In this document: positions 32,958-60,488 of the stretch, in pieces
Layout of the letters: each line of letters starts with the position of its first letter
How positions within the stretch are numbered: position 1 is the stretch's first letter
Source: Actinomycetes bacterium
GTDB lineage: Bacteria; Actinomycetota; Acidimicrobiia; Spongiisociales; JAHEDJ01
Reading direction: 5' to 3'
DNA: 64,000 nt
Assembly: GCA_024641245.1 (NCBI GenBank)
Contig: JAHEDK010000002.1
Span: 167,136 to 231,135, forward strand
Program-made: the position numbers and the translations under genes
Notes under the pieces: generated by a model
Databases searched by the model: none
What the model saw: only the letters and a program-made list of their open reading frames with translations
Told to the model about the DNA's origin: nothing

Positions 32958-33988
32958 ACCGCCCACGCATGGCCACGGTCCTGTCGGCGCGGGAATGGGA
33001 GCCGAGGCTGGTAGATGCAGCCCGGCGCGATCCGATCGTGAGGATCGTGCGTCGGGCGTATGAACCACAAGACCTGGAGCGCGCCGCACCACTCGACATC
33101 GTGGTGGTTGGATCCGAAACCTCATGGATAACATCCAATCGGATCCGGTTGATACGCCGGAGCGGAACGCACGTCATCGGCGTCTATCCAACAGGCGACG
33201 GACCTGGGCACGAACTCCTTCGTCGAGGCGGCGTCGACGTCGCATTGCCGGACACAACCACCCCGGAAGACCTGTTGAGTGCAGCGTCGGTGGTCGCGGC
33301 GCAGTCCCTAGCTCCGGTAGGCCGGGGCCGGCTCATCTCAGTCACGGGCCCGAGGGGGGCTCCGGGTCGAACAGAAATCGCCGTCTCCGTCGCGTACGCC
33401 ATCGCCGAACGCATCTCGACCGCGATCGTCGACCTCGACACCGAAGCCCCCGGGGTCACCTTCCGGATGGGGTTCGAACCCGGCGCCAACCTCATTGATA
33501 TCGCCGACGCCATCCGCACGACAGATCGACTCGTGGCACGGGATATCCGCCCGAACCTGACGGCGATCGGTGGGCCCGTCCCGCTCCGGACCGACCCCTC
33601 AAACAGGCTCGGAATCGCCGCACTCCTCGACGCCGTCCTGGCAGCATTCCCAGTCACCGTTGCGGATATCGGGCCGTGGAGGCCGGATCACTCGATCCTG
33701 GCCACCAGCGACGCGGCCGTCGTTGTATGTGACGCCTCCCCCATGAGTCTCATCAGAGCAGTGCAGTTCGTTCGCGACTGGGAGGGGCCAATTCCATACG
33801 TTGTCATCAATCGCGTCGGATCTGCGCAGGAGGAGGACATTCTTCGTTCTGCAAGAAGAGCAATGGGATTGGAGCCCCACACCCTCATTCCTGAGCTCTC
33901 GATTATCGATGGACGGGAAGGGCCGGCGCTCCGGCATCTCCTCGAATCCCTCGCAATCGACCTCCTGGCCGGCCCGCTCGATCTATGA
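32954..33988 (+). CDS. ParA/MinD/CpaE-like P-loop protein with degenerate Walker A (both Lys replaced by Arg) and N-terminal receiver-like domain
   Basis: ISVTGPRGAPGRTEIAVSVAYAIA aligns to KGGxGK[ST] but reads PRGAPGRT. Confidence 0.55.
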   Translation: MNRPRMATVLSAREWEPRLVDAARRDPIVRIVRRAYEPQDLERAAPLDIVVVGSETSWITSNRIRLIRRSGTHVIGVYPTGDGPGHELLRRGGVDVALPDTTTPEDLLSAASVVAAQSLAPVGRGRLISVTGPRGAPGRTEIAVSVAYAIAERISTAIVDLDTEAPGVTFRMGFEPGANLIDIADAIRTTDRLVARDIRPNLTAIGGPVPLRTDPSNRLGIAALLDAVLAAFPVTVADIGPWRPDHSILATSDAAVVVCDASPMSLIRAVQFVRDWEGPIPYVVINRVGSAQEEDILRSARRAMGLEPHTLIPELSIIDGREGPALRHLLESLAIDLLAGPLDL

Positions 33989-34101: not shown

Positions 34102-34584
34102 GTGGCAGGAATGAGCCGTCGGACTTTCTTGAGTCGCGCCACCGCGTCGATTGTCGGCGGGATCGGCGCGCTGATGGGCATCCCCACGGTTGCCTATCTC
34201 ATTTCTCCTGCCAAGGCTCGCGGTGGTCTTGGAGTCGAGGCGATCCCGCTCGGGCCTACCAACAAAGTGCCAATCGGGGAACCCACCCTCTTCAAAGCAA
34301 CCATCGAGCGCAAGACCGGATGGGTCACGCAGGCCGAAGAGCTCGCCTTCTACGTCTTCACAGAAGACGGGCGCAACTTCACGGCACTGTCCAACGTTTG
34401 CACGCACCTTGGCTGCCGGGTGCGGTGGGTCGGCAACGAGAAACAGTTCTTCTGCCCTTGCCACAATGCCGTCTTCACCGAAACCGGGAAAGTGGTTTCG
34501 GGCCCACCGCCCAGAGCCCTAGACCAGTACGAGCTGTCGGTTGAAGGTGACCAGTTGTTCGTCGTCGGGAAGGTCGAAGCATGA
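34102..34584 (+). CDS. Rieske [2Fe-2S] iron-sulfur subunit of cytochrome bc/b6f-type complex (set 1), Tat-exported
   Basis: Twin-arginine signal (SRRTFLS); Rieske boxes CTHLGC and CPCHNAVF. Confidence 0.9.
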   Translation: MAGMSRRTFLSRATASIVGGIGALMGIPTVAYLISPAKARGGLGVEAIPLGPTNKVPIGEPTLFKATIERKTGWVTQAEELAFYVFTEDGRNFTALSNVCTHLGCRVRWVGNEKQFFCPCHNAVFTETGKVVSGPPPRALDQYELSVEGDQLFVVGKVEA

Positions 34585-35270
34585 TCCAGAAGCTCAGTGC
34601 TTGGTTCGAAGAGCGGATGGGATGGAAGCCGATCTGGACGGCACTGGCGCTCCGCAACATCCCCAAGGTCAACTGGCTGTACACGCTGGGCAGCGCCACG
34701 CTCCTCGTCACAGTGAACCAGATTCTGACCGGCATCCTCCTCACCATCTACTACGTCCCCAGCCCTCAGGATGCCTACAACAGCGTTGCCTTCATAACGA
34801 ACGAGATCACTGCCGGCTGGCTCATCAGAGGGCTGCATCATTGGGGTGCCAGTGCGATGGTCGTCCTGGCCGGACTCCACATGCTGCGGGTGGTCTTCCA
34901 CGGCGCCTATAAGTTCCCCCGCGAAATCACCTGGTTCACCGGACTCGGCCTCCTGGCCGTGACGATGGCCTTCGGATTCACCGGGTACTTGCTGCCGTGG
35001 GATCAGAAGGCTTACTGGGCTACCACGGTGGGTACCCGAATGCTGGAGGTGACACCCGTCATCGGTGATTGGCTGCTCCGGATCGCCCGCGGTGGGGAAG
35101 AGCTGTCGGCCGTGACGCTCACCCGGTTCTACGGAACCCATGTATGGGTGCTCCCGTCGGTGCTCCTGCTACTCCTGGGTATCCACCTCTTTCTGGTCGT
35201 CCGCGTCGGCATCAGCGCACCTCCGACACCCAAGGAGACAGACGAGAAGCCCAAAGTGTGGTTCGAATAA
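34581..35270 (+). CDS. cytochrome b6-like subunit (N-terminal half of cytochrome b), set 1
   Basis: Four TM helices with haem-ligand His pairs (GLHHWGASAMVVLAGLHMLRVVFHG; THVWVLPSVLLLLLGIHLF); ATGA overlap with Rieske gene. Confidence 0.9.
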   Translation: MIQKLSAWFEERMGWKPIWTALALRNIPKVNWLYTLGSATLLVTVNQILTGILLTIYYVPSPQDAYNSVAFITNEITAGWLIRGLHHWGASAMVVLAGLHMLRVVFHGAYKFPREITWFTGLGLLAVTMAFGFTGYLLPWDQKAYWATTVGTRMLEVTPVIGDWLLRIARGGEELSAVTLTRFYGTHVWVLPSVLLLLLGIHLFLVVRVGISAPPTPKETDEKPKVWFE

Positions 35271-37669
35271 TGAAACGCGAAGAACGCTCCAAATACCTCG
35301 AGGAGTACGCAGAGGACAAGAAGAAGGGCATCCCGTTCTTCCCGGACGCCGTGTTCAAGGACGTCCTGGTTGCATTGATCGTGTTGATCATTCTCATCGG
35401 CCTCGCCTACTTCGCAGGCGCCCCGCTCGAAGAACGTGCGAATCCATCCGACAGCGACTACACACCTCGACCGGAGTGGTACTTCCTCTGGCTCTTCCAA
35501 CTGCTCAAGTACTTTCCGGGCAACCTCGAGTTCGTCGGCGTCATCCTCCTGCCTGCCCTCGGATTCGCCATCCTCTTCGCCATGCCGTACCTGGACAGGA
35601 CCAAGCTCCGTCACTTCCGCAACCGCAGTTGGGTGATGGCATCAACCGGCGTCGCCGTGGTAGCCATGGGGTTTCTCACAGTCCAATCCATCAGGGAGAC
35701 CCCGGCGCCGGCCGACGTGAGCGGCACCATCAACGCCGCCGTTCTCTTCACCGAGAATTGCTCCGTATGCCACGGCACATCGATCGATGTCCCGACCGGG
35801 ATAAACCTGCATGAGACGATTGCCGGGGGTCACGAGGGGATGCCGGCCTTCGCAGCCACTCTGTCGACCGATGAAATCGATGCCCTCGCAGGATTCCTGG
35901 TCTCTCCGCAGGGAGGGGCGATATTCACCGCCAACTGCGCGGCATGCCACGATTCGAGTGACCTCGCCGCCGCCACCCCGTTCCAGCTCCAGGACGCCCT
36001 GAATCAAGGCACCGCCTACGCGCCGCATGATGGACTCGACATACCCGACTGGTCCGAGGTCCTCTTCGGCCAGGATCGAACCGCGCTCCTCAACTTCTTG
36101 CTTGCTCCGGACGGCCAGCGCCTCTACACGCTCTACTGCTCCGAATGTCACGGAACCTCGATCAGCTGGGAAGGGGAACGAGACGAACTCGAAGCGCTCA
36201 TCCGCCAGGGCGGCAACCACCTCGAGATGACCCAGTGGAGGGACGTGCTGCCGGAGGACCAGATCACCGAACTCGCTCTGTTCGTCGTCGAACCATCCAC
36301 GGCTCCCGGGGGCGAGCAACTGTTTGCACAGCACTGCTCGAGTTGTCACGGCGTGCGGGTGCCGAGCGCTCCCGACATAGAAACCGCCTACAACATCATC
36401 GCCGACGGTGCAGAGCACCGATCGATGCCTGTCTGGGGCGACGTTCTCACCGAGGAGCAGCTAACCGCACTCACAACCTACACGCTCGAAGCCAGTCGCG
36501 GCACACCGGTCATCGTCGGCCAGCAACTGTTCGGTCAATTGTGCTCGTCGTGCCACGGTGACTTCGGTGAAGGCGGCCCGAACCCCGCCGACCCCATCAG
36601 AATCATCCCTCCGATCAGTACGGCGAGCTATTTGGAGACCCGGGACGACGCCACGTTGCGCGCCATCATCTCAAAGGGTCAGTCGGACCAGGGCATGTCG
36701 CCTTTCCTGGAGAGCGAAGGTGGACCGCTGACCGAGGACGAGGTGAATGCCGTGGTTGCGTTCCTCCGTTCGTGGGAATCGGATCCGCCGGTCGATTTGC
36801 CGCCCGATCTTGCCCGTGGACCCGTCGCGGGTGGAAGCGTGCAGGTGTATGCGGCGTTCTGCGCCCAATGCCACGGAGCAGATGGGGCAGGCGGCCCCGA
36901 TTTGGTCGGTCCTTCCTTGACCTCGGCAGAATTCCAGGATTCCTTCACCGATGAGCAACTGCACGAGGCCATCGACCTCGGCCATGCTGCTACTTCGATG
37001 ATCGCCTGGGGCGAGGTCCTCACCGCCGATCAGATCCAGGGACTCGTCGACCACATCCGCTCGCTGGGCGGACGCGGTACCCTGCAGACGATCGTCTACG
37101 AACGCGACATTGCTCCGATCTTCCAGGCGTCTTGCGCCGGTTGCCACGGGTCGTCGGGGGGTTGGGATGCATCCACCATGGAGTCCGTGATCGGCAGCGG
37201 AAGCAGCGGGCCGGCCGTCGTCGCCGGCGATCCCGACGGGAGTCATCTCGTGCAGCGCCTTCGTGGCGAGGGCAACTTGATGCCCCCGGCCGGAGCGCTG
37301 CCGGACAACCAACTCGATCTGATCGTGCAATGGATTGCCGGGGGAGCAACCGCCGAAGTGACAACAGGCGACGCGCAATCCGGCGGCGGCGACATCGGTG
37401 ATTACACGTGGACGAAGGATGTCCAGCCGATCCTGCAGGCCAGTTGCGCGGCCTGCCACGGATCGTCCGGGGGTTGGTACGCGGGGACGTACAGCTCCAC
37501 GATCAACAGCGGCGACAGCGGTCCGGCCGTCGTCCCTGGGAATGCCGACGACAGTTCGATGATCCAACGACTGCTCGGCAACGGCAACCTGATGCCGCCG
37601 GGAGCTCCGCTTTCGGAAGAACAGATCGCCGTCCTGATCTACTGGGTCAACAGCGGCGCCAAGGAATAG
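35270..37669 (+). CDS. cytochrome b subunit IV (PEWY-containing) fused to an octahaem c-type cytochrome domain
   Basis: N-terminal 150 aa = subunit IV (TPRPEWYFLWLF; 3 TM). Then eight CxxCH motifs (CSVCH, CAACH, CSECH, CSSCH, CSSCH, CAQCH, CAGCH, CAACH); the last two sit in repeated CxxCHGSSGGW...GNLMPP modules. Start overlaps the upstream stop (TAATG). Confidence 0.85.
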   Translation: MKREERSKYLEEYAEDKKKGIPFFPDAVFKDVLVALIVLIILIGLAYFAGAPLEERANPSDSDYTPRPEWYFLWLFQLLKYFPGNLEFVGVILLPALGFAILFAMPYLDRTKLRHFRNRSWVMASTGVAVVAMGFLTVQSIRETPAPADVSGTINAAVLFTENCSVCHGTSIDVPTGINLHETIAGGHEGMPAFAATLSTDEIDALAGFLVSPQGGAIFTANCAACHDSSDLAAATPFQLQDALNQGTAYAPHDGLDIPDWSEVLFGQDRTALLNFLLAPDGQRLYTLYCSECHGTSISWEGERDELEALIRQGGNHLEMTQWRDVLPEDQITELALFVVEPSTAPGGEQLFAQHCSSCHGVRVPSAPDIETAYNIIADGAEHRSMPVWGDVLTEEQLTALTTYTLEASRGTPVIVGQQLFGQLCSSCHGDFGEGGPNPADPIRIIPPISTASYLETRDDATLRAIISKGQSDQGMSPFLESEGGPLTEDEVNAVVAFLRSWESDPPVDLPPDLARGPVAGGSVQVYAAFCAQCHGADGAGGPDLVGPSLTSAEFQDSFTDEQLHEAIDLGHAATSMIAWGEVLTADQIQGLVDHIRSLGGRGTLQTIVYERDIAPIFQASCAGCHGSSGGWDASTMESVIGSGSSGPAVVAGDPDGSHLVQRLRGEGNLMPPAGALPDNQLDLIVQWIAGGATAEVTTGDAQSGGGDIGDYTWTKDVQPILQASCAACHGSSGGWYAGTYSSTINSGDSGPAVVPGNADDSSMIQRLLGNGNLMPPGAPLSEEQIAVLIYWVNSGAKE

Positions 37670-37811: not shown

Positions 37812-39608
37812 ATGGAGAAACTTCACTTCTTCGACGAGAACATCCCCTGTCTCGCCGCCTGTCCGGTCAACACGAATGCCGGCATGTACGTTGCCGCCAT
37901 CGCAGACGGACAGGATGAACTGGCCTATCTAACCGCTCGCCTCCCCAACCCGTTCGCCTCCGTCTGCGGTCGGGTTTGTGCGGCGCCATGCGAGGACGCC
38001 TGTCGGCGCGGCGAAATCGACAAGCCCATCGCCATCCGGGCGCTCAAGCGATTCGTCACCGATCAATTCGGCGTCGAATCCGGCATGGATACCTACCGGC
38101 AGGTCGCCGCCCCTGCTCTCGAGTCGCGATCACAAAGCGTCGGGATTGTCGGAGGGGGCCCGGCCGGCCTGGCCGCCGCCCACGACCTCCGCCGCCTCGG
38201 CTACGGCGTCACGCTGTACGAAGCCACCGGTCAGCTCGGCGGCATGATGCTGCTGGGGATCCCCGAGTACCGCCTTGATCGATCCCTCCTGGCGGCGGAG
38301 ATCAAGGCCATCACCGACCTGGGCGTCGAGGTTCGGTTGAACACGAAACTCGGCGATGGCATCACGCTCGATGACCTCCGCCGGCAGCACGATGCCCTAT
38401 TCGTGGCCATCGGGGCGACCCTCGGACGCGGACTCGACCTCGAAGGCCACGACGCAGACGGGGTGTTGAAGGCGATCGAGTACCTGATCAACGCCAACCA
38501 GGGGTTCGCAACCGACGTCGGTCAGAAGGTGGTCGTAATCGGTGGCGGCGACGTGGCGATGGATGCAGCAAGGACCGCGCTACGAGCTGCAACCTACGAT
38601 GAGATCGCCCGCCGCCATGCCGAATACGACGAAGAGGACGGGCGCTCATCCATGACGGAAGCCCTCGACGTGGCTCGCACGGCTGCCCGGACTGGTGCTC
38701 AGGACATAACCATCATGTCACTCGAGGCCAAACACGAGATGCCGGCGTCGGAGTTCGAGGTCGAAGAGGCCGAGCACGAGGACATCAAGTTTGTCAACCG
38801 GCGCGGTCCCGCCCGGATACTCACCGCCGATGGCAAGGTCACCGGCATCGAGACGATCGGGGTCACGCGCGTTTTCGACGAGAACGGCCGGTTCTCCCCT
38901 GAATTCGACGATGCAGATCGGCTGACGCTGGAGGCAGACACCATCATCATGGCTATCGGCCAGGCGATCGATGTTGAGGCACTGGGAGCGAACGGCCCTG
39001 AGTTGAGTCCTCGCAAGACAATCCAAGTGGGTGAGGACAGCCTGGCGACTTCGCTTCCGATGGTATGGGCCGGCGGCGATGCAGCCAGGGGCCCGCGCAC
39101 TCTCATCGATGCGATCGCAGACGGCCGGATTGCGGCCCGTGAGATCCACGAGGCGTTTGGCGGCAGCTTCGCCGAGCAGGATACCGGAACCATGGTGCAA
39201 CTGGACCAGTTCCACCGTCTCGACGACATCTACGACCGGGTCCCCCGGGTCGCCGTGCCCACGCTGCCGACGGACCGGCGCATCGGTCTGGCAGAAGTCG
39301 AAACAGGGTTCACCGTCGAAGAGGCCAGGTGTGAGGCACAGAGGTGTCTGCGCTGCTTCGCCAACATCCTGCTCGATACCGACATTTGTGTTTTATGCGC
39401 GCTGTGCGCCGACGTCTGCCCGCTCGACCTGATTTCGCTGGTTCCCTCGGAGGACATTCACCCAGACGAGCCGGGTGGCACGGCGTTAATGTTGAACGAG
39501 CAAAGCTGCATCCGTTGCGCGCTGTGTATTGAGCGATGCCCGACAGATGCACTGTCGATGGGACTGTGGACCGGAGTGGGAGTGCCGAAATTGGGAGCAC
39601 CGGTATGA
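37812..39608 (+). CDS. GltD-like FAD/NAD(P)H-dependent oxidoreductase with N-terminal Fe-S domain and C-terminal 2x[4Fe-4S] ferredoxin domain
   Basis: N-terminal Cys cluster (CLAACPV...CGRVCAAPCEDAC), FAD motif GIVGGGPAGLAAA, NAD(P) motif VVVIGGGDVAMDAA, C-terminal CLRCF...CVLCALCADVCP and CIRCALCIERCP. Confidence 0.85.
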   Translation: MEKLHFFDENIPCLAACPVNTNAGMYVAAIADGQDELAYLTARLPNPFASVCGRVCAAPCEDACRRGEIDKPIAIRALKRFVTDQFGVESGMDTYRQVAAPALESRSQSVGIVGGGPAGLAAAHDLRRLGYGVTLYEATGQLGGMMLLGIPEYRLDRSLLAAEIKAITDLGVEVRLNTKLGDGITLDDLRRQHDALFVAIGATLGRGLDLEGHDADGVLKAIEYLINANQGFATDVGQKVVVIGGGDVAMDAARTALRAATYDEIARRHAEYDEEDGRSSMTEALDVARTAARTGAQDITIMSLEAKHEMPASEFEVEEAEHEDIKFVNRRGPARILTADGKVTGIETIGVTRVFDENGRFSPEFDDADRLTLEADTIIMAIGQAIDVEALGANGPELSPRKTIQVGEDSLATSLPMVWAGGDAARGPRTLIDAIADGRIAAREIHEAFGGSFAEQDTGTMVQLDQFHRLDDIYDRVPRVAVPTLPTDRRIGLAEVETGFTVEEARCEAQRCLRCFANILLDTDICVLCALCADVCPLDLISLVPSEDIHPDEPGGTALMLNEQSCIRCALCIERCPTDALSMGLWTGVGVPKLGAPV

Positions 39609-41948: not shown

Positions 41949-42371
41949 CTACGCGTCCGTCGGGACCTCGTAGGGGTGCCCTTCGTCCTCGGGCGCTTGG
42001 TACTGCTCGTCGTGTTTGACGACCAGCTGGTCGCTGCGGAAGACGTCACCGTCCCAGGCGCCTTCGACGATCGCACCGACGCCTTCGCGGAACAGTTCCG
42101 GTGGGGCTCCCTGGTGCACGATGTGCACTTCATGGGCACCGTCGGACACGGTGAACTCGACTCCATCCGAGGTGGCAACCAGTGTCCCGACTTCGACCTG
42201 ACCGCCGAGCCGGAACCGCTCACCATCGGGGAACTGAGCCCTCTGCTCGATAGCTTCGTTGGGGGTCAAGTAGTAGACGAGGTTCTCGCCGAGGCTGAGA
42301 AACACCATCCATCCGATGATCACAACGATCGCTCCGATGGCGGGAAGTACGAACCAGCGATATCGAGTCAT
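41949..42371 (-). CDS. ccmE: cytochrome c maturation haem chaperone CcmE
   Basis: N-terminal anchor, OB-fold, haem-binding His in LVVKHDEQYQAP. Confidence 0.9.
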   Translation of the reverse strand: MTRYRWFVLPAIGAIVVIIGWMVFLSLGENLVYYLTPNEAIEQRAQFPDGERFRLGGQVEVGTLVATSDGVEFTVSDGAHEVHIVHQGAPPELFREGVGAIVEGAWDGDVFRSDQLVVKHDEQYQAPEDEGHPYEVPTDA

Positions 42372-42372
42372 G

Positions 42373-42486
42373 TCAGCCCTCCACCCGGCGGCGGACGCTG
42401 CGCAGGCGCACAGTCAAGAACACCGCATATCCGATCATGAAGCCGTACACCACCGTGTAGGCAAAAACGACCCATCCGTTAGACAT
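42373..42486 (-). CDS. ccmD: haem exporter protein CcmD (37 aa)
   Basis: Unannotated small ORF MSNGWVVFAYTVVYGFMIGYAVFLTVRLRSVRRRVEG between ccmC and ccmE; single TM plus basic tail as in CcmD; overlaps ccmC stop and abuts ccmE start. Confidence 0.6.
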   Translation of the reverse strand: MSNGWVVFAYTVVYGFMIGYAVFLTVRLRSVRRRVEG

Positions 42487-43204
42487 CTCGCACCTTCTCG
42501 AGGTTGGGAGCCGTGATGGCGGCACCGGCGGGCGTGGCATCAGCGGCGGCGGATTGTTCTTCGAGTTGTTCCTCGCCCCTGGCGATGGCCGTCTTGACGC
42601 TCATGAAGGCGAGATAGACCACGGTGAACGCTCCAACGTTGCTGAGCAACGCCAGCAGGATCTCTCCATCGATCGGAGAATCCGGTCGCACCACCGTGAT
42701 CCCCTGGTGCAACGTGCGAACGATGATCACCGAAACGTAGGACAGCGGCACGAGGAAGAAGGCCACGATGCCCAGCACCGCGGATCTCGTCGCCCGCATG
42801 GCCGGGTCGGGAATGCTGCGGCGCAAAGCCAGGTAACCGAGGTAGACGAAGAACATGAGGGCCGTCGTCATCATGCGGGCATCGCCCCAGTCCCAGAACG
42901 TCCCCCACACCGGGTAACCCCAGATCATGCCGGTCATGAGCGCCAGCGCGGTGAAGAACACGCCGACCGAGACGCTGGACTCGGCGATTCGATCGTAAAC
43001 GGGCTTGCGTCTCGCCAGCCACAGGATCGAGGCGGCGAACGTCACAAGAAACGAGAGGTAGGCAAGCCACGCCGAAGGTACGTGCACGTACATGATGCGG
43101 GTGTAGTCGCCCTGCAACTGATCGAGCGGCGCCTGGCCACCGAAGTAGAAGCCGACCAGCACCGCTGCCAGTGCGATCAACCCGAGTATTCGATGTCTAT
43201 TCAA
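42479..43204 (-). CDS. ccmC: haem exporter / haem lyase subunit CcmC
   Basis: WGTFWDWGD (WWD domain) motif and 6 TM helices. Confidence 0.9.
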   Translation of the reverse strand: MNRHRILGLIALAAVLVGFYFGGQAPLDQLQGDYTRIMYVHVPSAWLAYLSFLVTFAASILWLARRKPVYDRIAESSVSVGVFFTALALMTGMIWGYPVWGTFWDWGDARMMTTALMFFVYLGYLALRRSIPDPAMRATRSAVLGIVAFFLVPLSYVSVIIVRTLHQGITVVRPDSPIDGEILLALLSNVGAFTVVYLAFMSVKTAIARGEEQLEEQSAAADATPAGAAITAPNLEKVRDV

Positions 43205-43881
43205 CGTGAGGCCTCCTCGAGGAATCGGGCGGTCAGCACACCTACCACTGCCAGCCCGAGTACCACGGCAAGTAGCAGAAGGATGGGAGTGAGGATACTT
43301 GACTTCTGAGCCAACGCTTCATACGTCTGTGATGCTCCGACGAGCAGCGGCAACGCCAGCGGTGCCACCAGCAGCGGTGCCAGCGTGTTACGAGAGCGCA
43401 GACCGGCCGTGATACCGGAGGCGAGCGTACCGATGAGCGCCAGGCCGACGGCCATCAGCAGAAGGACCAAAATCAGGATCGCCCACCCCTCTACCGGGTC
43501 CGGGTTGTAGAGGATGATCGTGGCGGGCGCAAGCACTCCTTCGAACACGAGCAACAGGAGGACGCTCGCCACAACCCTGCCCGCGAACTGCGCGGCCGGG
43601 TCCACGCCGAGCAACACCATCATCTCGCGATTGGCCGAACTCTCTGTGGCCGACTGGCGGAACGTGACCAGCATCCCGAACAGCAGGGTCACGACCCAGA
43701 ACATGCCCGGTCCGATCGAGGCGATGAGTGGACGGTCGGTCCCGATCGCCAGCGGGATGAGCAGCAGCGCAACCGCTCCAAACGGGATCGTGATGTTCAG
43801 GACCTCGCCGGTCCGTCCTTCGACCCGCAGATCCTTCAACCCGATCTCATATGCCTGGCCCCAGAACGACGGACCGCTCAT
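43201..43881 (-). CDS. ccmB: haem exporter membrane protein CcmB
   Basis: CcmB-type 6-TM ABC permease; 4-nt overlaps with ccmC and ccmA. Confidence 0.85.
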   Translation of the reverse strand: MSGPSFWGQAYEIGLKDLRVEGRTGEVLNITIPFGAVALLLIPLAIGTDRPLIASIGPGMFWVVTLLFGMLVTFRQSATESSANREMMVLLGVDPAAQFAGRVVASVLLLLVFEGVLAPATIILYNPDPVEGWAILILVLLLMAVGLALIGTLASGITAGLRSRNTLAPLLVAPLALPLLVGASQTYEALAQKSSILTPILLLLAVVLGLAVVGVLTARFLEEASR

Positions 43882-44534
43882 GATGAGCTCCCCGCGATCA
43901 CGATCCCACCCGTCAGCTCATAGGTCGATTGCACCAGCGGCAGCATGCGATCGAGTTCGTGGGACACGAAGACGGCGGCGCCACCACGGGAACGGACGTT
44001 CTCGACAACTGCGTCGACGAGTTGTCCGGCCTCTCGATCTAGTCCGGCGTGGGCCTCATCGAGCAGCAGTAGGTCGGGCCTGGTGAGAATCACCCTGGCG
44101 AACTCAACTCGCCGCTGCATACCATGCGACGACTGCTCCGCCCGCCGGTGCTTCGCCCCACCCAGCCCGACCACGTCGAGCATCTCATCTACCCGCTCGT
44201 CAGTGTGGCCCGACAACCGGGCGACGAAGGCGAGATTCTCACGCAGCGTCAACTGCGGGTAGAGCGCCGGTTGATGGCCGATCAGCGCGATCCGGCGCCG
44301 GATCGCAAACGCCGTCGCTTCGCCCATCTCGGTGCCGAACACCGCCACCGAGCCCTCCGTCGGTCGCAGCAACGTGGCCAGCACCCGGAGCAGCGTCGAC
44401 TTTCCCGAACCATTCGGCCCAACGATCCCGGCTGCCTCCCCGGACGGTACCGCCAGCTCCACGCCCTTCAATACCGGCACCCGGCCGTATCGAACGGCGA
44501 CGCCGTGCAGCTGCACTGTGGGAGGTGTGGACAT
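43878..44534 (-). CDS. ccmA: haem ABC exporter ATPase CcmA
   Basis: Walker A GPNGSGKST, signature and Walker B LLLDEA; start set at internal ATG (MSTPPTVQLHGV). Confidence 0.85.
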   Translation of the reverse strand: MSTPPTVQLHGVAVRYGRVPVLKGVELAVPSGEAAGIVGPNGSGKSTLLRVLATLLRPTEGSVAVFGTEMGEATAFAIRRRIALIGHQPALYPQLTLRENLAFVARLSGHTDERVDEMLDVVGLGGAKHRRAEQSSHGMQRRVEFARVILTRPDLLLLDEAHAGLDREAGQLVDAVVENVRSRGGAAVFVSHELDRMLPLVQSTYELTGGIVIAGSSS

Positions 44535-44804
44535 GACAGACGAGTGTACGCACGCAGCTTCGGGCGCCGAAACGCGACCCCGGATAAACACCACCCGTTC
44601 TCTCCCTTTCGCCACCTTTTCAGGGTTTTATGGCGGGTTTCAACCCAGGCAGGGCCCAAGTGCCCCAGGGCGCGAGGACTTTGCGCTGTTGGTGTGTTTC
44701 CGATATACCCGTATCCTCTGCAATGAGAAACGGGGGACCGACCCTGAATCGCCGCCGGAACGGCTCATTCACACGGTGATCCCCATGGAGGAAGGCACAG
44801 CAAA

Positions 44805-46844
44805 ATGAACGCGACCCTCGGGTATCTCTCGATCCTGGCCGCAGTGGTGGGAGCGCTCGGTATCACCGTGCGGGGTTTCATCGCGATGCGTGATCCGGAG
44901 CGGGCGAACAAAGGGTATCTGGGGTTGCCCGTCATACTGTTCGTGTCCGGAGCCGTCGGCGCAATGTTCTTCCTGGAACTCGGGCTTCTCACCGACGACT
45001 TCTCGATCAAGTACATCGCCAACAACTCCTCGACCACCACCCCGTTTCTCTTCAAGGTCGCCTCTGGATGGGCATCGCTGGAGGGATCGATCGTTTTGTG
45101 GGGTCTGGTCCTGGCCGGCTTCACATTCGCCGTATACGCACGGTTCTTCAGAAGCGAAAGCGGCGACCGGCTCGCAGCAGGGGCTCTGGCGATCATGGGG
45201 CTCATCTCTCTTTACTTCTTCGGGCTAATGGCCACAATCTCCGACCCATTCGCTCGCTGCGTGCAAACGTTCAGCGACGGTGTCGGTTGTGTGACCGGCG
45301 AGAACGCGATCCTCGCCAACGTGATCTCCTCCCCGATCGAAGGGCGCGGCGCCAACGCACTGCTCCAGAACCATTGGCTCATGGCCCTGCATCCACCAAC
45401 GCTCTACGTCGGCTATGTCGGGCTCAGCGTCCCCTTTGCGTTTGCCATCTCGGCGCTCCTCCTCAAAACCACCGGGGCGGCCTGGCTGACCCGGACCCGC
45501 AACTGGACGGTGTTCGCCTGGATGTTCCTCACTGCCGGCATTGTTCTCGGTGGGCTCTGGTCGTATGAGGTGCTCGGCTGGGGCGGCTACTGGGCATGGG
45601 ACCCGGTTGAGAACGCCTCCTTCATGCCGTGGCTGGTCGCGACTGCCTTCTTGCACTCGTCTGTCGTGCAGGCGAGGCGCGGGATGCTGCAGTCGTGGAA
45701 CTTCGTCCTCGTCATCACGACCTTCGCGCTCACGATTCTCGGCACCTTCTTGACCCGCTCCGGCGTAATCGTTTCGGTTCACAGCTTCTCGCAGTCCGCC
45801 ATCGGGCCTGCCCTGTTGATCTTCCTGGTGGTCGTGCTGCTGGGATCGCTCGGGCTCTTCGCGTCAAGGGCTCACACCATCGCCTCTTCTCCCCGGCTCG
45901 ATTCACTCAGCAGCCGGGAAGGGGTGTTCTTGTTCAACAACCTTCTGCTCACCGTGTTCGCGTTCATGGTGCTGACAGGGACGCTCTACCCGCTCTTCGT
46001 TGAGGCGTTCTCCGACTCGACGGTGGGCGTCGGTCGTCCGTTCTTCGATCGCATGGCGATCCCGTTGTCCTTCCTGTTGCTGCTGGCGATGGGCATCGGA
46101 CCGGTCTCGCCCTACCGGGCGGCGAGCGCCCGCGTCGTGTGGGAGCGGATTCGCTGGCCCGTCCGGGTTGCCCTCGGCGCCGCCGCGCTGGCCGTCGTGT
46201 TCGGCTATCGGAACTCGTTCCTGCTGCTCGGTGTTCTGGCCGCCGTGTTCGTCATGGGCGTGATCATCCGCAACCTCTACGACGCCGCCCGGACCAGGGC
46301 AGACAAACTCGGTATCGGACGGAGACAGGCCGCCGCCCGGATCATGCGCGGCGACCCGCACTATTGGGGTGGCCAGATCTCCCACCTGGGCGTTGCGATA
46401 CTGGCACTGGGCATCGCCTTCTCAGCCAACCTGTCGGAGACCGCCACGGTGACCATCGACGCCGGAGATACGGTCAACTTCGCCGGCTTCGAGGTGACCT
46501 ACGAACAGGAGTTCAGCCGCCAGGAACCGGGCCGGTTCGTCACCGGAGCAGACATCACGGTGACCCGGGACGGGTCGGTCGTCGGTACGTACCAGCCACG
46601 GCTGAATCAGTACGGCAACACGCGGGAATCGATCGCCACCCCAGAGGTCGACACCATGTTCTCAGGCGACCTGTACCTCTCGCTCCGCAGCATCGATCCT
46701 TCATCCGTGACCCTCGAGGTCTATTGGTTCCCGTTCATCTGGCTCATCTGGGTTGGAGGCTTCCTGGCGGCCGCCGCCGGGGTCTGGGGATTCGCGGTCA
46801 AGAAGCCCGAACGTTCGGTTGCACGGGACGACACGCGTGTCTGA
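44805..46844 (+). CDS. ccmF: cytochrome c-type biogenesis protein CcmF
   Basis: WGGYWAWDPVEN WWD motif; ~15 TM; RBS ggaggaagg. Confidence 0.9.
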   Translation: MNATLGYLSILAAVVGALGITVRGFIAMRDPERANKGYLGLPVILFVSGAVGAMFFLELGLLTDDFSIKYIANNSSTTTPFLFKVASGWASLEGSIVLWGLVLAGFTFAVYARFFRSESGDRLAAGALAIMGLISLYFFGLMATISDPFARCVQTFSDGVGCVTGENAILANVISSPIEGRGANALLQNHWLMALHPPTLYVGYVGLSVPFAFAISALLLKTTGAAWLTRTRNWTVFAWMFLTAGIVLGGLWSYEVLGWGGYWAWDPVENASFMPWLVATAFLHSSVVQARRGMLQSWNFVLVITTFALTILGTFLTRSGVIVSVHSFSQSAIGPALLIFLVVVLLGSLGLFASRAHTIASSPRLDSLSSREGVFLFNNLLLTVFAFMVLTGTLYPLFVEAFSDSTVGVGRPFFDRMAIPLSFLLLLAMGIGPVSPYRAASARVVWERIRWPVRVALGAAALAVVFGYRNSFLLLGVLAAVFVMGVIIRNLYDAARTRADKLGIGRRQAAARIMRGDPHYWGGQISHLGVAILALGIAFSANLSETATVTIDAGDTVNFAGFEVTYEQEFSRQEPGRFVTGADITVTRDGSVVGTYQPRLNQYGNTRESIATPEVDTMFSGDLYLSLRSIDPSSVTLEVYWFPFIWLIWVGGFLAAAAGVWGFAVKKPERSVARDDTRV

Positions 46845-47250
46845 TTCGATTCGCAAGATCGCGGCGGCGGTGGTGACTATCGGCCTGGCGGTTGTCGTCG
46901 TAATCGGCCTCATCCAGGGCGACCGAACCGATGAAGATCGCGCCCGGTCCATCGGCTCCAGAGTGAAGTGTCCCGTTTGCCAGGGCGTAGCCATTGCCGA
47001 TTCTCCTTCGGAAACTGCCAGAGCGATGATGGACGTCGTCGAAGAGCGAATCGCAGACGGGTGGTCGGACAGACAGATCATCGACTACTTCGCGGAGCGC
47101 TACACCGACAGCATCGTCATCGACCCGCCCTTCAGCGGGAATACGCTGCTCGTCTGGCTGCTGCCGATCCTGGCAGTAGTCGCAGGCTTCTTCATGATCT
47201 TCTCCCGGCGCAAGACGCCGGTGCCAAAACCCGATGAGGTGAAACAGTGA
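46837..47250 (+). CDS. ccmH: cytochrome c-type biogenesis protein CcmH (CxxC)
   Basis: VKCPVCQG motif, C-terminal TM; GTG start overlapping ccmF stop. Confidence 0.75.
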   Translation: MSDSIRKIAAAVVTIGLAVVVVIGLIQGDRTDEDRARSIGSRVKCPVCQGVAIADSPSETARAMMDVVEERIADGWSDRQIIDYFAERYTDSIVIDPPFSGNTLLVWLLPILAVVAGFFMIFSRRKTPVPKPDEVKQ

Positions 47251-48080
47251 GCAACTTCAACCAGGAGTCATACGATCGGGCGGTCGCCCGCAAGGAACTG
47301 GCCTTGACCGATCTCGAAGAGCTGGCCCAGCAGGTGGACGACGGTGAGATCGACGCGCCCACCGCGGCAGGACTCCGGAGCGGCTACGAGGCTGAACTCG
47401 GCGCGGCCGAAGCCGAACTGGCCAGACTCGGTCCACCGCCCACTCCCAAGAAGTCGCCCGGTCAAGCGTCGACCAAACGTGCGCCGAGCGAGAACGGACG
47501 GCCGGCCCGGAAGTCGAGCGACTTGAATACTCGTCTGCTGGTCGGCGCCGGCATTCTCATCGTCGCCCTCGTCGTGATTCTCATCTCGGTCCAGAATTCG
47601 GCGCAGCCGGATCCGGCCGCGATGGGCACCCAGGTGACGACGGCAAGCGGCGAGGACCCCTGCGCGGAGCTGGCCGACGCGTTGACCAGTCACTCCGACA
47701 ACGGCTTTCGTCTCGCACTGGCCGACTGCTACGCAGACGTCGGAAACGCCATGTCGGCGATCGAGCACTACCGGGCCGTCGCCGATGCCGAAGGTGCCGC
47801 CGACGGCGAGGTCGCACGGGCAAACGTGGGACTCGGCTTCCTCAACCTTCAAATCGGTGAGCTCGCCAAGGCCGCCGACTACATGCGCGTGGCGCTCGAG
47901 CGCGACGCCGCCAACGTCGAAGCTCAATACTTCCTGGGCATGATGCTCGTCTACGACCTCGGCGATCCGGCCGCAGGAGCCCCATATCTCGAGTCGGTAC
48001 TCGCAACTCCCGACCTGCCGGAGACGGTGATCCTCGAAATCCAGGCAGCGCTCGATGTCGCGGCGGGCGAGGGCTCATGA
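47247..48080 (+). CDS. CcmI/CycH-like TPR protein
   Basis: N-terminal coiled-coil, single TM, C-terminal TPR repeats; translationally coupled between ccmH and ccmG. Confidence 0.55.
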   Translation: MSNFNQESYDRAVARKELALTDLEELAQQVDDGEIDAPTAAGLRSGYEAELGAAEAELARLGPPPTPKKSPGQASTKRAPSENGRPARKSSDLNTRLLVGAGILIVALVVILISVQNSAQPDPAAMGTQVTTASGEDPCAELADALTSHSDNGFRLALADCYADVGNAMSAIEHYRAVADAEGAADGEVARANVGLGFLNLQIGELAKAADYMRVALERDAANVEAQYFLGMMLVYDLGDPAAGAPYLESVLATPDLPETVILEIQAALDVAAGEGS

Positions 48081-48685
48081 CCAACACGGACCTCGCCGTC
48101 GAGCCGACCCCGGAAGCACCGCAACGCAACCTCAAACTGTGGATAACGACCGGCCTGGCGGCGGTGGCCTTCATCGCGCTCGCCCTCGTGTTCAACAGCC
48201 GGTTTGGCGTTGACCCCCGGGTCGTCGAATCCCCGCTCATCGGGCAACCCGCCCCGAACCTCGAACTCGAGGTTCTCGAGCAGGACGCCATCTCTGGCCC
48301 CATGGCAATGTCGGAATTTCGCGGCAGCGTGGTCGTGGTCAACTTCTTCGCCTCTTGGTGCATCCCCTCCTGTCGCGATGAGCACCCCCATCTCACCGCG
48401 GCCGCCGCCGACTACGCCGACCGCGGCGTCCGGTTCGTTGGAATAGCCACCAGCGACACACCCGAAGACACACGCGGGTTCCTCGACGCGCTCGGGTGGG
48501 GAACCAACTACACCTACCTCAACGATCCCGATGCCAGGGCAGGAGTCGAGTTCGGCACATTCGGAGTTCCCGAAACGTTCGTGATCGACCGGGAGGGGCT
48601 CGTCACGCACAAGTTCACGGGGCCGGTCACATACGATGAACTGGTCGTCGAGTTGGAGAAGGCGTTGACCGAGACGGGTTCATGA
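48077..48685 (+). CDS. thiol:disulfide interchange protein CcmG/DsbE-like (thioredoxin fold) with atypical WCIPSC (CxxxC) active site
   Basis: N-terminal anchor and TlpA/ResA-like fold; active site reads W-C-I-P-S-C, checked in the DNA (tgg tgc atc ccc tcc tgt). Confidence 0.75.
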   Translation: MTNTDLAVEPTPEAPQRNLKLWITTGLAAVAFIALALVFNSRFGVDPRVVESPLIGQPAPNLELEVLEQDAISGPMAMSEFRGSVVVVNFFASWCIPSCRDEHPHLTAAAADYADRGVRFVGIATSDTPEDTRGFLDALGWGTNYTYLNDPDARAGVEFGTFGVPETFVIDREGLVTHKFTGPVTYDELVVELEKALTETGS

Positions 48686-49484: not shown

Positions 49485-49625
49485 TCGGGCCCGTTTCCGC
49501 AGGTTAGCTTGTAGCAATTCCCAATCTTGTGCGCCCTTTCACATGGGTCGAATGACCCTACGCGATCTGCGCGCGGATCCGTCATCATGTCGGTACACGA
49601 GTCGAGTAGCTCCCGGGGAGGAAGC

Positions 49626-51698
49626 ATGAGTCGATTTCGACACACACGCTTGGTTGTGCTTGTCGCCCTGCTGATGGTCTTAGCGGCCTGCACGAGCAGC
49701 GCCGACGACACCACCACTACGGGAGCGGAAGGGTCAACGCCCACGACAGCTCCACCGGTCGTCGAGCCGGCGGAATCCGAGCTCGTGGTTCCGTTCCTAG
49801 CGGCCTGGGTCGGTTCTGGACACAACGACGCGACTGCTGAAGCCTTCGTGCACTGGAATGAGGACGACCCCCAGGTCATTCCGACCAGTTGCGCGAAGTG
49901 CCACAGCACCCCCGGTCACCTCGATTTCCTCGGAGCCGACGGCAGCCCGTTCGGCAGCGTTGAAGCCGACGCCCCCATCGGGACCACGATCCAATGCGAA
50001 GCGTGCCACAACGATGTCACGATCTCCCTGGACAGCGTCGTGATGCCATCGGGTCTCGAACTCACCGGCCTCGGCGACGAATCCCGTTGCATGAACTGCC
50101 ACCAGGGCAGGGAGTCCAAGATCAGCGTGGACGCATCGATTACCGAAGCGGGCGTCGAAGAGGACACCGTCTCCGAGGATCTGGGTTTCCGGAACATCCA
50201 CTACTTCGCGGCTGCCGCCACCAAATACGGTACCGAAGCCAAGGGTGGCTATGAGTACGAGGGCAAGACGTACGATGCGTTCTTCGTCCACGTCGAGGGA
50301 TACTCGACCTGTATTCAGTGCCATGATCCGCACACGCTGGAACTGAAGATCGCCGAATGCTCGACATGCCACACCGGTGTCGCCACGGTTGAGGATCTCC
50401 GAGATGTCCGTATGCCGGGATCACTCGTCGACTTCGACGGAGACGGGAATCTCGAAGAGGGCATCTACTACGAACTCGAGGGCGTGCGGGGACTCTTGCT
50501 CCAGGCCATTCAGGCGTATGCCTCCGAGGTGGCGGGAACCGGCATCACCTACGATGCCAACGCCTACCCGTACTTCTTCGATGAGGCCGGCAAGGGCTTT
50601 GGCGCGTGGACCCCGCGTCTGCTCAAAGCGGCGTACAACTATCAGGTGTCCCTCAAGGACCCGGGAGCATTCGCGCACGGTGGCAAGTACATCCTCGAGT
50701 TGATGTACGACTCGATCGAGAACCTCAACGAAGCCATCTCGTCGCCCATCGACATGACGGCGATGCACCGAATCGACCACGGGCACTTCGCCGGGTCCGA
50801 GGAAGCCTTCCGGCACTGGGACGAGGATGGCGCCGTGCCGGCTTCGTGCTCACGGTGCCACTCGGCTGGAGGCGTGCCGCTGTATCTGCAGGAAGGCGTG
50901 ACGATAACCCAGCCAACTTCCAACGGGTTCAACTGCTCGACGTGCCACAACAGCACGAGCGAGTGGACCCGGTATGAGGTCCTCGATGTGACCTTCCCGA
51001 GCGGTGCGACTATCGACAGCGGCGACCAGAACGCCAACCTTTGCATGACCTGTCACCAGGGCCGTGAATCCGGCGCAAGCGTCGACCGGCGGATCGGAGA
51101 CACCGGGGCGGATACCGTCAGCGACACACTTGGCTTCATCAACGTGCACTACCTGCCGGCGGGCGCCACGCTCTTCGGCAGCGAGGCAGCGGGTGGCTAC
51201 CAGTACGCCGGGCAGACCTATGCCGGAGCCAACGATCACCCCATCGCCACGTGCACGGGTTGCCACAGCGCCCACACACTACAGGTTGAGGTTGAGGCCT
51301 GCGGGGGTTGCCATCAGGGGACGAACTCTGAAGAAGACCTGCAGGACATCCGCATCACCGCCGGCGACTTCGATGGTGACGGCGACGAGGCCGAGGGCAT
51401 CGCCGGAGAGGTCGAGACCATGCGCGAAGCCCTGCTGGCGGCGATGCAGGCGTATGCGGACGCCACGGACGGCGTGAGCCCGATCGTGTACGACGCCCAC
51501 GCCTATCCGTACTTCTTCAACGACGCCGGTGAGAGCTATTCGACCTGGACGCCGCGTCTGCTGAGGGCCGCCTACAACTACCAGTACGCAACGAAGGACC
51601 CTGGTGCGTTCGCCCACAACCCGGCCTACGTGCTCGAGTTGTTGTATGACTCGCTGGCGGACATCGGCGCCGACGTGACGGGGCTGATCAGGCCGTAG
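49626..51698 (+). CDS. decahaem c-type cytochrome lipoprotein (two tandem pentahaem halves)
   Basis: Start ATG after GGAGGAAG; lipobox LAAC; ten CxxCH motifs; residues ~90-400 and ~400-690 are clear internal duplicates (e.g. YPYFFDEAGKGFGAWTPRLLKAAYNYQ vs YPYFFNDAGESYSTWTPRLLRAAYNYQ). Confidence 0.85.
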   Translation: MSRFRHTRLVVLVALLMVLAACTSSADDTTTTGAEGSTPTTAPPVVEPAESELVVPFLAAWVGSGHNDATAEAFVHWNEDDPQVIPTSCAKCHSTPGHLDFLGADGSPFGSVEADAPIGTTIQCEACHNDVTISLDSVVMPSGLELTGLGDESRCMNCHQGRESKISVDASITEAGVEEDTVSEDLGFRNIHYFAAAATKYGTEAKGGYEYEGKTYDAFFVHVEGYSTCIQCHDPHTLELKIAECSTCHTGVATVEDLRDVRMPGSLVDFDGDGNLEEGIYYELEGVRGLLLQAIQAYASEVAGTGITYDANAYPYFFDEAGKGFGAWTPRLLKAAYNYQVSLKDPGAFAHGGKYILELMYDSIENLNEAISSPIDMTAMHRIDHGHFAGSEEAFRHWDEDGAVPASCSRCHSAGGVPLYLQEGVTITQPTSNGFNCSTCHNSTSEWTRYEVLDVTFPSGATIDSGDQNANLCMTCHQGRESGASVDRRIGDTGADTVSDTLGFINVHYLPAGATLFGSEAAGGYQYAGQTYAGANDHPIATCTGCHSAHTLQVEVEACGGCHQGTNSEEDLQDIRITAGDFDGDGDEAEGIAGEVETMREALLAAMQAYADATDGVSPIVYDAHAYPYFFNDAGESYSTWTPRLLRAAYNYQYATKDPGAFAHNPAYVLELLYDSLADIGADVTGLIRP

Positions 51699-51745
51699 CG
51701 TGACAGAGGGGGCCGGGCACACACCCGGCCCCCTCGTTGTTCCCC

Positions 51746-51795: not shown

Positions 51796-51796
51796 C

Positions 51797-52720: not shown

Positions 52721-52754
52721 CAAGGTTGGGTGTGACAAATCCCGAACCCAGTGA

Positions 52755-60480: not shown

Positions 60481-60488
60481 GAGCACCG

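Follow-up and report, generated by a model that had tools for sequence, protein, structure and literature searches.

The fusion gene and its operon

The stretch of DNA analysed here, hereafter the window, comprises 64,000 nucleotides of contig JAHEDK010000002.1 (positions 167,136 to 231,135, forward strand) from the Acidimicrobiia assembly GCA_024641245.1. It contains three consecutive genes, all on the + strand, which encode a Rieske [2Fe-2S] subunit of 160 amino acids (34102..34584), a four-helix cytochrome b6-type subunit of 229 amino acids (34581..35270) and a fusion protein of 799 amino acids (35270..37669, stop codon included) made up of a subunit IV module, six class-I cytochrome c domains and two PSCyt1 modules. 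The stop codon of the Rieske gene overlaps the start codon of the b6 gene, and the TGA of the latter shares an ATGA overlap with the ATG of the fusion gene; because of these overlapping stop and start codons, the three genes fit one operon. A scan of the 33.6-42.1 kb region for promoters and terminators gave nothing beyond the shuffled expectation, so that the limits of the operon are set by the gene overlaps alone.

A sequence-only reading of the fusion gene had proposed that a subunit IV of about 150 residues, with a PEWY motif and three transmembrane helices, continues in frame into a cytochrome tail on the positively charged side of the membrane (p-side). Both points were borne out. A single uninterrupted open reading frame spans 35069..37669 (+) and encloses the gene; the other two frames of the fusion-gene DNA contain 22 and 8 stops. 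The retained start, the ATG at 35270, is common to all 119 aligned homologues (see below), and the product has a mass of 84.7 kDa as apoprotein and of ~89.7 kDa with eight haems. The subunit IV module (amino acids 1-143, 35270..35698, +) was delimited by hydropathy, by the helices of the AlphaFold2 model and by Pfam. Hydropathy and model agree on three transmembrane helices, at about residues 26-49, 86-108 and 120-143; Pfam PF00032 (Cytochrom_B_C) matches residues 57-158 (E 2.5e-11, 44 bits versus a cut-off of 20.7), and the sequence matches of the module in the Protein Data Bank (PDB) are the C-terminal third of cytochrome b and subunit 4 of b6f (1q90_D, E 5.8e-6). The PEWY motif of the quinol oxidation (Qo) site occupies residues 68-71 (35471-35482). 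With NCBIfam, all three subunits remained below the cut-off of every model, the nearest ones being cytochrome b6 and ExtP, which is why the databases label the fusion protein just 'c-type cytochrome'; its relatives are named either in the same way or 'mono/diheme cytochrome c'.

Eight one-haem domains in the tail

The tail of roughly 650 residues carries, as the sequence-only reading had counted, eight CxxCH motifs (at residues 164, 223, 290, 356, 425, 531, 622 and 726 of the fusion protein), within which fall all 16 cysteines of the protein; 20,000 shuffles of the protein gave 0.007 motifs on average and one at most. Cytochrome c domains begin at about residue 154, right after the third transmembrane helix. 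Pfam detected Cytochrome_CBB3 on seven stretches of the tail (E 6.6e-68), together with Cytochrom_C and PSCyt1 (PF07635, E 2.3e-14, 54.2 bits versus a gathering cut-off of 22; two stretches pass, the best being 726-777). The domain annotation thereby confirmed the suspected make-up of the protein, i.e. Cytochrom_B_C, class-I cytochrome c and two PSCyt1 modules, including the proposed likeness of the last two haem modules to PSCyt1.

The six class-I cytochrome c domains identified by Pfam Cytochrome_CBB3 and Cytochrom_C, D1 to D6, extend over 35729..37069 (+), with their CxxCH motifs at 35759-35773, 35936-35950, 36137-36151, 36335-36349, 36542-36556 and 36860-36874 (all +). They are followed by the PSCyt1 module D7 (amino acids 606-700, 37085..37369, +; CxxCH at 37133-37147, Met671 in GNLMPP), by a flexible linker rich in Gly, Ser and Asp (amino acids 701-710, 37370..37399, +) and by the PSCyt1 module D8, the C-terminal head (amino acids 711-799, 37400..37666, +; CxxCH at 37445-37459, Met775). 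The linker has a predicted local distance difference test value (pLDDT) below 50 and, at 0.35, the lowest conservation in the protein. D7 and D8 both contain the CHGSSGGW and GNLMPP motifs and had been described as near-identical, which is not the case: they share 52% of their residues (46/89) and ~68% of their nucleotides, and the duplication that produced them is therefore an old one. PSCyt1 is said to occur at the N-terminus of large planctomycete proteins that also contain PSCyt2 and PSD domains, whereas here it is the C-terminal, repeated end-piece of a quinol-linked membrane cytochrome.

The motifs are spaced 59-106 residues apart, each within a class-I-like domain of its own. In the 119-member alignment, Met 191, 320, 386, 476 and 577 and the MPP methionine of each PSCyt1 module are invariant and are candidates for the distal haem ligand; D2 has an invariant His253 and no conserved Met. 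From this pattern of residues, seven of the eight domains appear to fit class-I His/Met ligation. Packed multihaem cytochromes (c3/c7, MtrC, NrfB, octahaem HAO/OTR) differ from the tail by their closely spaced bis-His motifs and compact fold. Since its motifs are 59-106 residues apart, seven of its domains have an invariant Met and its Foldseek matches are to single domains, the tail is not of the packed octahaem type; the earlier designation 'octahaem cytochrome c domain' was thus right about the number of c-type haem sites and misleading about their housing, which is in eight separate one-haem, class-I-like domains. The Foldseek matches were to c552/c6-like domains, and none covered the whole architecture. 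Similarly, phmmer against the PDB found no structure of the whole architecture, just C-termini of cytochrome b, b6f subunit 4, CcoP and small c552s. For the Pfam c7, c3 and MtrC models no individual stretch passed. The D5-D6 region resembles both the dihaem QcrC of actinobacteria (NCBIfam NF050122, E 7e-19, 68.1 bits versus a cut-off of 200, residues 411-572) and CcoP (TIGR00782, E 2e-32, below cut-off).

Conservation of the fusion

Homologues were searched in a collection of 5.8 billion proteins (E <= 1e-10), in which the 8,000 candidates sharing most words were scored, so that the counts given here are lower bounds. At least 1,625 protein clusters (90% identity) share the fusion architecture. 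Among the best 120 of them, 102 have seven CxxCH motifs (~700 amino acids), 17 have eight (~800 amino acids) and one has ten (1,056 amino acids); the named hosts in this set are metagenome-assembled genomes (MAGs) of Anaerolineales for the 7-haem form and of Acidimicrobiia for the 8-haem form. The Qo motif is PEWY in 119 of these 120 and PDWY in the remaining one, and stands at residue 68 in 119 complete sequences. A scan of metagenomes confirmed at least 536 further stretches.

The metagenome-assembled origin of the window raised the question of an assembly or sequencing artefact, in which a subunit IV gene and a separate cytochrome gene would have been joined, and a sequencing frameshift had been named as the finding that would undo the fusion. 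We found no evidence pointing that way, and the possibility of a frameshift or chimera was rejected with near certainty: the identical 799-amino-acid protein is also encoded on a contig that Logan assembled independently from run SRR12825431; the fusion recurs, with 74-81% identity, in four further loci, of which two bear the label of Acidimicrobiia MAGs and whose neighbours are fully syntenic with the window as far as the contigs reach; and the best 120 homologues all combine PEWY or PDWY with 7-10 haem motifs, to which come the other clusters and the metagenome stretches.

The anatomy of the family was derived from the alignment of 119 members. The subunit IV module has a conservation of 0.74, and is surpassed by D1 (0.81) and D5 (0.80), the most conserved domains; the joint between module and tail (residues 144-153) is poorly conserved and of low confidence. 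D1-D4 measure ~65 amino acids each and D5 and D6 ~90 each. Short conserved P-x-G turns join D1-D6, except for the weak joint at 512-518 ahead of D6, again poorly conserved and of low confidence. The number of PSCyt1 copies varies between members (1, 2 or 4), and linkers rich in G/S/T/P separate them. The 7-haem form lacks the D7 copy and its lone PSCyt1 aligns with D8; in the 10-haem relative (P0015) the PSCyt1 linkers are longer and of the same G/S/T/P-rich kind.

Subunit IV plus D1, used as HMMER query against 1.84 billion cluster representatives, revealed a wider group of modular make-up, with fusions carrying 1, 2, 3, 4, 5, 6, 7 or 8 haem motifs, some of these entries ending at contig edges. 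Complete variants include two c domains plus PSCyt1 (P0133), five c domains plus PSCyt1 (P0128) and seven motifs without any of the PSCyt1 type (P0179). One entry of 810 amino acids (P0199) is of another kind: in it an unsplit, long cytochrome b with PEWY at about residue 290 is joined to 17 CxxCH motifs, most of which form close pairs, i.e. a different and even larger multihaem fusion at the Qo-side end of cytochrome b. ARMA_0580 of Ardenticatena maritima, considered as a characterised 7-haem homologue (74 kDa, seven haems, surface-located), was rejected, as it has 430 amino acids and one transmembrane helix.

The Rieske and b6 subunits

The Rieske protein matches the Pfam Rieske family (E 1e-12) and carries the sequence SRRTFL of a twin-arginine signal, the two cluster motifs (CTHLGC and CPCHNAVF) and the disulfide cysteines; its best NCBIfam match, below cut-off, is the iron-sulfur subunit of b6f. 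After CPCH it has neither the Ser nor the Tyr, a context which we take to mark a low-potential, menaquinol-type Rieske protein and apply as such to the CPCHNAVF protein. The potential classes are those set out by Kao & Hunte 2014 (PMC4122944).

The b6-type subunit is a clear member of Pfam Cytochrome_B (E 6.8e-50) and scores 239 bits with the NCBIfam cytochrome b6 model, versus a cut-off of 325. The four positions of the b-haem His ligands are presumably kept, from an alignment to a b6 reference. There is no cysteine in the protein, YTLGS being found at the position aligned to CxGG; for want of a cysteine this subunit, though split and b6-like, cannot bind haem c_n/c_i covalently. The TLGS replacement also occurs in the short cytochrome b of Rubrobacter and Conexibacter (Dibrova et al. 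2017, PMC5600118).

Relation to known complexes

Rieske/cytochrome b complexes are central to respiration, and the way in which electrons leave them varies by lineage. The 'PEWY-cyt c' clade is characterized by a PEWY motif and by a split cytochrome b whose C-terminal part bears a fused class-I cytochrome c (Kao & Hunte 2014, PMC4122944). All three features are found in the window operon, the split being visible from Cytochrome_B in the 34581-35270 gene and Cytochrom_B_C in the 35270-37669 gene, and a tentative placement in this clade is suggested by motifs and architecture. For Actinobacteria, five split cytochrome b pairs were listed, the sources being three strains of Rubrobacteridae and one of Acidimicrobidae, Ilumatobacter; their motif is PEWY or APWY, and they group with the PEWY-cyt c or the APWY clade (PMC4122944). 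The window, with one complex per motif type (see below), matches this listing. Kao & Hunte speak of a class-I cytochrome c domain, with no mention of 6-10 haem tails or PSCyt1 ends (PMC4122944). A further trait shared by the window b6 subunit with the short cytochrome b of Rubrobacter and Conexibacter is the TLGS sequence.

In Bacillus, QcrC is a protein of ~255 amino acids with one haem, and the b6 subunit binds haem c_i covalently through the Cys of CxGG. QcrC reportedly consists of subunit IV plus one cytochrome c domain, as worked out by Yu, Hederstedt & Piggot in 1995 and by Yu & Le Brun in 1998. The likeness to the window complex is considerable: the cytochrome b is split, a class-I cytochrome c comes right after the last helix of a three-helix subunit IV, the gene order is Rieske, b6, subunit IV-c, and the host is without a closed periplasm. 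The window protein, however, has 799 amino acids and eight haem domains versus one and ends in PSCyt1 modules, its b6 partner is without the Cys for covalent haem c_i/c_n, and its Qo motif is PEWY versus the PDWY typical of Firmicutes (PMC4122944). On these sequence features, we do not regard the complex as a member of the Bacillus QcrABC type.

It is not a b6f complex either, because there is no cytochrome f match among the scanned proteins of the operon and its flanks and no Cys for haem c_n; in addition, the NCBIfam models for b6, subunit IV and PetC all stay below their cut-offs for the window proteins. The dihaem QcrC of the actinobacterial bcc-aa3 supercomplex (PDB 7q21, 7e1w) resembles the tail in that tandem class-I domains serve as a built-in cytochrome c in hosts without soluble cytochrome c, but as a separate subunit it brings its own anchor, and it has two haems, where the window tail is fused and has eight. 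Moreover, the cytochrome b of bcc-aa3 is of the long, unsplit form with PDWY (PMC4122944), and that of the window is split. With 68.1 bits versus a cut-off of 200, the window protein is not a member of the actinobacterial QcrC family.

A last comparison is with the anammox complexes Kuste4569-4574 and Kustd1480-1485, in which a four-helix b6-like cytochrome b and a subunit IV-like protein are accompanied by an NAD(P) oxidoreductase and the place of cytochrome f is taken by a hexa- or octahaem cytochrome c (PMC12954380). The window likewise encodes, directly downstream of the fusion gene, a GltD-like NAD(P) oxidoreductase and a second complex. The anammox multihaem c forms a subunit by itself, with a helix of its own, the anammox subunit IV is a five-helix protein, and c_N haems come into the discussion of these complexes (PMC12954380), whereas in the window the tail is fused, subunit IV has three helices, and the GltD-like gene precedes and overlaps the second (APWY) complex.

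That a class-I cytochrome c can be attached to the split-off C-terminal portion of cytochrome b was thus known already, from Bacillus QcrC and the PEWY-cyt c clade, and the present protein is a real and abundant elaboration of a known design, not a new principle. In our incomplete coverage of the literature, we found no published description of a subunit IV tail of 6+n haems or of PSCyt1-ended quinol oxidases. The family is common in environmental data (at least 1,625 clusters and 536 metagenome stretches, as seen above), and its 7-10 one-haem class-I domains on subunit IV would make one of the longest high-potential wires tethered to a quinol oxidase. The family would also give the PSCyt1 domain its first functional context.

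Genes around the operon

A cytochrome island of nearly 30 kb begins with the operon. Immediately upstream of the Rieske gene lies an open reading frame of 344 codons without Pfam match (32954-33988), found at the same position, with 57-68% identity, in the related loci L001-L003. At 142 bp downstream of the fusion gene begins the gene for the GltD-like FAD/NAD(P) oxidoreductase (37812-39608), with a Fer4_20 domain and two [4Fe-4S] motifs; a second Rieske/b complex (39536-41825) comes next, overlapped at its start by this gene, and comprises b6, an APWY subunit IV, a Rieske protein (CPCHGSVF) and a one-haem cytochrome c. L001 and L003 have the whole unit 37812-41825, with 74-93% identity; in L002 and L004, whose contigs end inside the unit, the GltD-like gene is ~90% identical. 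The layout of the unit recalls the NAD(P)-linked complexes of anammox bacteria (PMC12954380) and the APWY clade of Kao & Hunte.

Genes of the System I (ccm) route of cytochrome c maturation, identified by Pfam, occupy 41949..48685, with ccmE, ccmC, ccmB and ccmA on the - strand and ccmF, ccmH, a 277-codon open reading frame and a gene for a ccmG-like thioredoxin on the + strand. By their sequences they make up a complete System I, which would be the machinery needed to attach eight haems on the p-side. Beyond them, a multihaem island (48795-62909) has eight or more genes for multihaem cytochromes: a 5-haem protein with its transmembrane helix at the C-terminus, a 10-haem lipoprotein, an 11-haem protein, a 10-haem protein with an N-terminal transmembrane helix and at least four more. 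It also encodes an Rrf2 regulator, tetratricopeptide repeat proteins, SurA-like proteins and an NHL-repeat beta-propeller, and by its content looks like an extracellular electron-transfer gene set in an actinobacterium. The 10-haem lipoprotein (49527..51698, +), a candidate partner of the fusion protein, has a LAAC lipobox-like motif and 10 CxxCH motifs in two 5-haem halves; no relative of it was found in the PDB. In the middle of the island, on the opposite strand, lies a gene for an AbiEi-antitoxin-like/MTES_1575 nuclease-like protein (51797-52912, -), which may be a mobile or defence insertion.

Neighbourhoods were counted in 25 metagenome loci of at least 8 kb. The b6 gene is a neighbour in 25/25 and the Rieske gene in 24/25. 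Then come a NapC/NirT-type multihaem protein (17/25), a pair formed by a multihaem c and a b561-type protein (Ni_hydr_CYTB; 14/25), a GerE-type response regulator (12/25), ccmF and an NrfC-like Fe-S protein (7/25 each) and a homologue of the 10-haem lipoprotein of the window (6/25). Both the NapC/NirT-type and the b561-type neighbours end in a PSCyt1 above the Pfam threshold, and these two types stand directly upstream of the Rieske gene in 14-17 of the 25 loci. A third PSCyt1-ended type, a membrane-anchored cytochrome with a poly-Thr linker, is present in L005. PSCyt1-ended membrane cytochromes of related loci are encoded at 5667-8541 in L006, 7093-8787 in L009, 5846-8737 in L010 and 6148-7608 in L005.

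The second complex is usually absent from loci of the Anaerolineales type, with weak matches to its b6 and Rieske proteins in 2/25. The operon is followed by the GltD-like gene and the APWY-type complex in L001 and L003, and by part of this unit in L002, L004 and L008; ccm genes adjoin it in L001, L005, L006 and L010. The 10-haem lipoproteins of the window and of the Anaerolineales locus L006 are 54% identical, a divergence equal to that of the fusion proteins, and in L009 a multihaem gene of 732 codons holds the lipoprotein's position. Locus L005 (CAXMQV010000107.1) is labelled as an uncultured Gammaproteobacteria MAG; its operon is of the 7-haem form and 50% identical to that of the window, and its CcmF is 61% identical. 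Downstream it encodes NrfC-like and NrfD-like proteins, the PSCyt1-ended cytochrome and a four-haem class-I cytochrome. Either a binning error or a horizontal transfer into a diderm would account for this locus.

A candidate electron outlet and its alternatives

We lean towards the view that the fusion protein is the tethered electron outlet of a menaquinol-oxidising, b6c-type complex in presumably monoderm bacteria. The gene, its domains, their conservation and the neighbours are observed; haem attachment, ligands, potentials, the order of transfer, the direction of flow and the partner are what we infer from them. The Rieske, b6 and fusion proteins would form a b6c-type quinol:cytochrome c oxidoreductase. 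Quinol, by lineage probably menaquinol, would be oxidised at the Qo site, of which the PEWY of the subunit IV module is a part, and one electron would go to the Rieske cluster, the head of which would pass it on to haem 1 in D1. The tail should be on the p-side, where Ccm attaches haem, because the three transmembrane helices would have their N-terminus on the n-side, as in subunit IV of b6f. D1, which starts about 10 residues after the last helix, would act as the counterpart of cytochrome c1/f. Its designation as Rieske acceptor comes from its placement, which is that of the cytochrome c domain of Bacillus QcrC, and from its being the best conserved haem domain; a conservation above that of subunit IV (0.81 versus 0.74) is to be expected of a domain that must dock the Rieske head.

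From D1 the electron would hop through D2-D6, a conserved and closely joined stalk, to the PSCyt1 heads, which, being carried by floppy linkers and variable in number, could reach anchored partners outside the membrane. It is because the linkers are flexible and poorly conserved that a conserved core can be told apart from the variable heads (1, 2 or 4 PSCyt1). Multihaem or lipoprotein cytochromes and terminal reductases or oxidases are proposed as acceptors. Where there is no closed periplasm, the covalent tether would replace a soluble cytochrome c. This fits the hosts, since Acidimicrobiia and Anaerolineales are both presumed to be monoderm: Actinobacteria are monoderm, and a Chloroflexi relative has been described as presumably so (PMC5808234). 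With an estimated ~2.5-3 nm per class-I domain, eight domains could reach up to ~20 nm, comparable with the Gram-positive wall. An exit route tethered to the Qo-side subunit had been suggested by the sequence-only reading, and remains the most reasonable interpretation; it is less unusual in kind than had been supposed, given the subunit IV-cytochrome c fusions already known. The 'high-potential' character then ascribed to the tail would follow from ligand type only.

Several observations weigh against such an outlet. In D2, a Met-less domain with His253, one link of the chain may have a much lower potential than the others. His/Met haems would be uphill donors to the typical low-potential bis-His multihaem proteins, and for this reason the neighbouring multihaem cytochromes may be parallel routes, not acceptors. 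In the loci inspected, no gene for a terminal oxidase or reductase was consistently adjacent to the operon. The idea that the 10-haem lipoprotein is an obligatory partner is weakened by its being adjacent in just 6 of the 25 loci. The full-length AlphaFold2 model has a predicted template modelling score (pTM) of 0.35, a value that does not fix the arrangement of the domains or the Rieske-haem 1 and haem-haem distances. Lastly, L005 bears the label of a diderm group, the Gammaproteobacteria, although this label may be due to a binning error.

Alternatively, the tail could be an internal bridge to a haem-copper oxidase within a fixed supercomplex like bcc-aa3, and serve oxygen respiration only, unconnected to the multihaem cytochromes. 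CuA and cbb3 oxidases usually receive their electrons from class-I His/Met domains, the resemblance of D5-D6 to QcrC and CcoP (E 7e-19 and 2e-32, both below cut-off) goes in the same direction, and the weak Foldseek matches include QcrC chains of the Corynebacterium and Mycobacterium supercomplexes. However, the operon was not seen to adjoin oxidase genes, either in the window or among the called genes of the inspected loci, the 25-locus panel having included no oxidase query; eight domains with variable, flexible heads exceed the needs of a fixed bridge, and it is other quinol-linked cytochromes, likewise ending in PSCyt1, that are conserved next to the operon. We therefore consider an oxidase bridge unlikely.

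Flow in the opposite sense would make the tail an inlet: an external donor, be it Fe(II), Mn(II), a cathode or a partner cell, would supply electrons to the PSCyt1 heads, and the proton-motive force would drive them uphill through the complex, working in reverse, as far as the quinone pool. In Acidimicrobiia, their user would then be the NAD(P)-linked Rieske/b complex encoded next to the operon. Reverse operation of Rieske/b complexes has been proposed for Acidithiobacillus ferrooxidans and for p-cresol oxidation by Geobacter metallireducens (cited in PMC4122944). The large multihaem island of the window would suit an inlet, as would the GltD-like oxidoreductase and APWY-type complex that follow the operon in L001 and L003 (partly in L002, L004 and L008), in a layout resembling that of the anammox complexes proposed to make NAD(P)H (PMC12954380). 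On the other hand, most 7-haem loci do not have the NAD(P)-linked second complex (weak matches in 2/25), the window is without markers of carbon fixation or lithotrophy, and the direction of flow is not readable from sequence. An inlet function appears improbable to us.

It is more improbable still that the tail acts mainly as an electron store (a capacitor), a redox sensor or a catalyst, for example with a peroxidase or nitrite-reducing site at D2, and not as a conduit. The invariant His253 in place of a Met in D2 could be read in this way, and genes for histidine kinases and GerE-type regulators often adjoin the operon (the regulator in 12/25 loci). Against this, no CxxCK-type or distal-pocket catalytic signature was seen, all eight sites being plain CxxCH, the order and count of the domains are conserved in a chain-like manner, and the kinases are encoded by separate genes.

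Returning to the tethered outlet, the recurrence of PSCyt1 at the end of the neighbouring cytochromes invites a broader and more speculative proposal, the odds of which we consider poor: PSCyt1 would be a plug-compatible head shared by the Rieske/b6c, NapC/NirT-type and b561-type quinol oxidases, all of which would feed one extracytoplasmic acceptor network. This network, formed by lipoprotein and multihaem cytochromes, would reach through the wall in the presumably monoderm Anaerolineales and Acidimicrobiia. In Geobacter, ImcH (NapC/NirT-like), CbcL (a b-type plus a multihaem c moiety) and CbcBA (bc-type) similarly provide several quinol-oxidising modules that feed extracytoplasmic cytochromes (bioRxiv 10.1101/2021.04.15.440034, PMC6295460). 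The likeness is an analogy of layout only, in that 7-haem loci hold NapC/NirT-type, b561-type and Rieske/b6 modules side by side; the Geobacter modules are not known to have Rieske proteins or PSCyt1 ends and belong to a diderm envelope. If true, the shared head would be the monoderm counterpart of the ImcH/CbcL/CbcBA outlets and would represent the first Rieske/b complex wired directly into extracellular electron transfer, and service of a shared acceptor network by the heads would explain how respiratory electrons are distributed in wall-enclosed bacteria without a periplasm.

Regulatory genes near the operon

In three of the related loci, a HisKA_3 kinase gene and a GerE/NarL-type regulator gene come directly after the 7-/8-haem gene (L006 12149-14186, L010 12369-14340 and L011 4500-6615). 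The kinase of L010 has a four-helix-bundle sensor domain, Mcp40H-20. These pairs hint at a regulated, possibly nitrate- or redox-responsive, expression of the operon.

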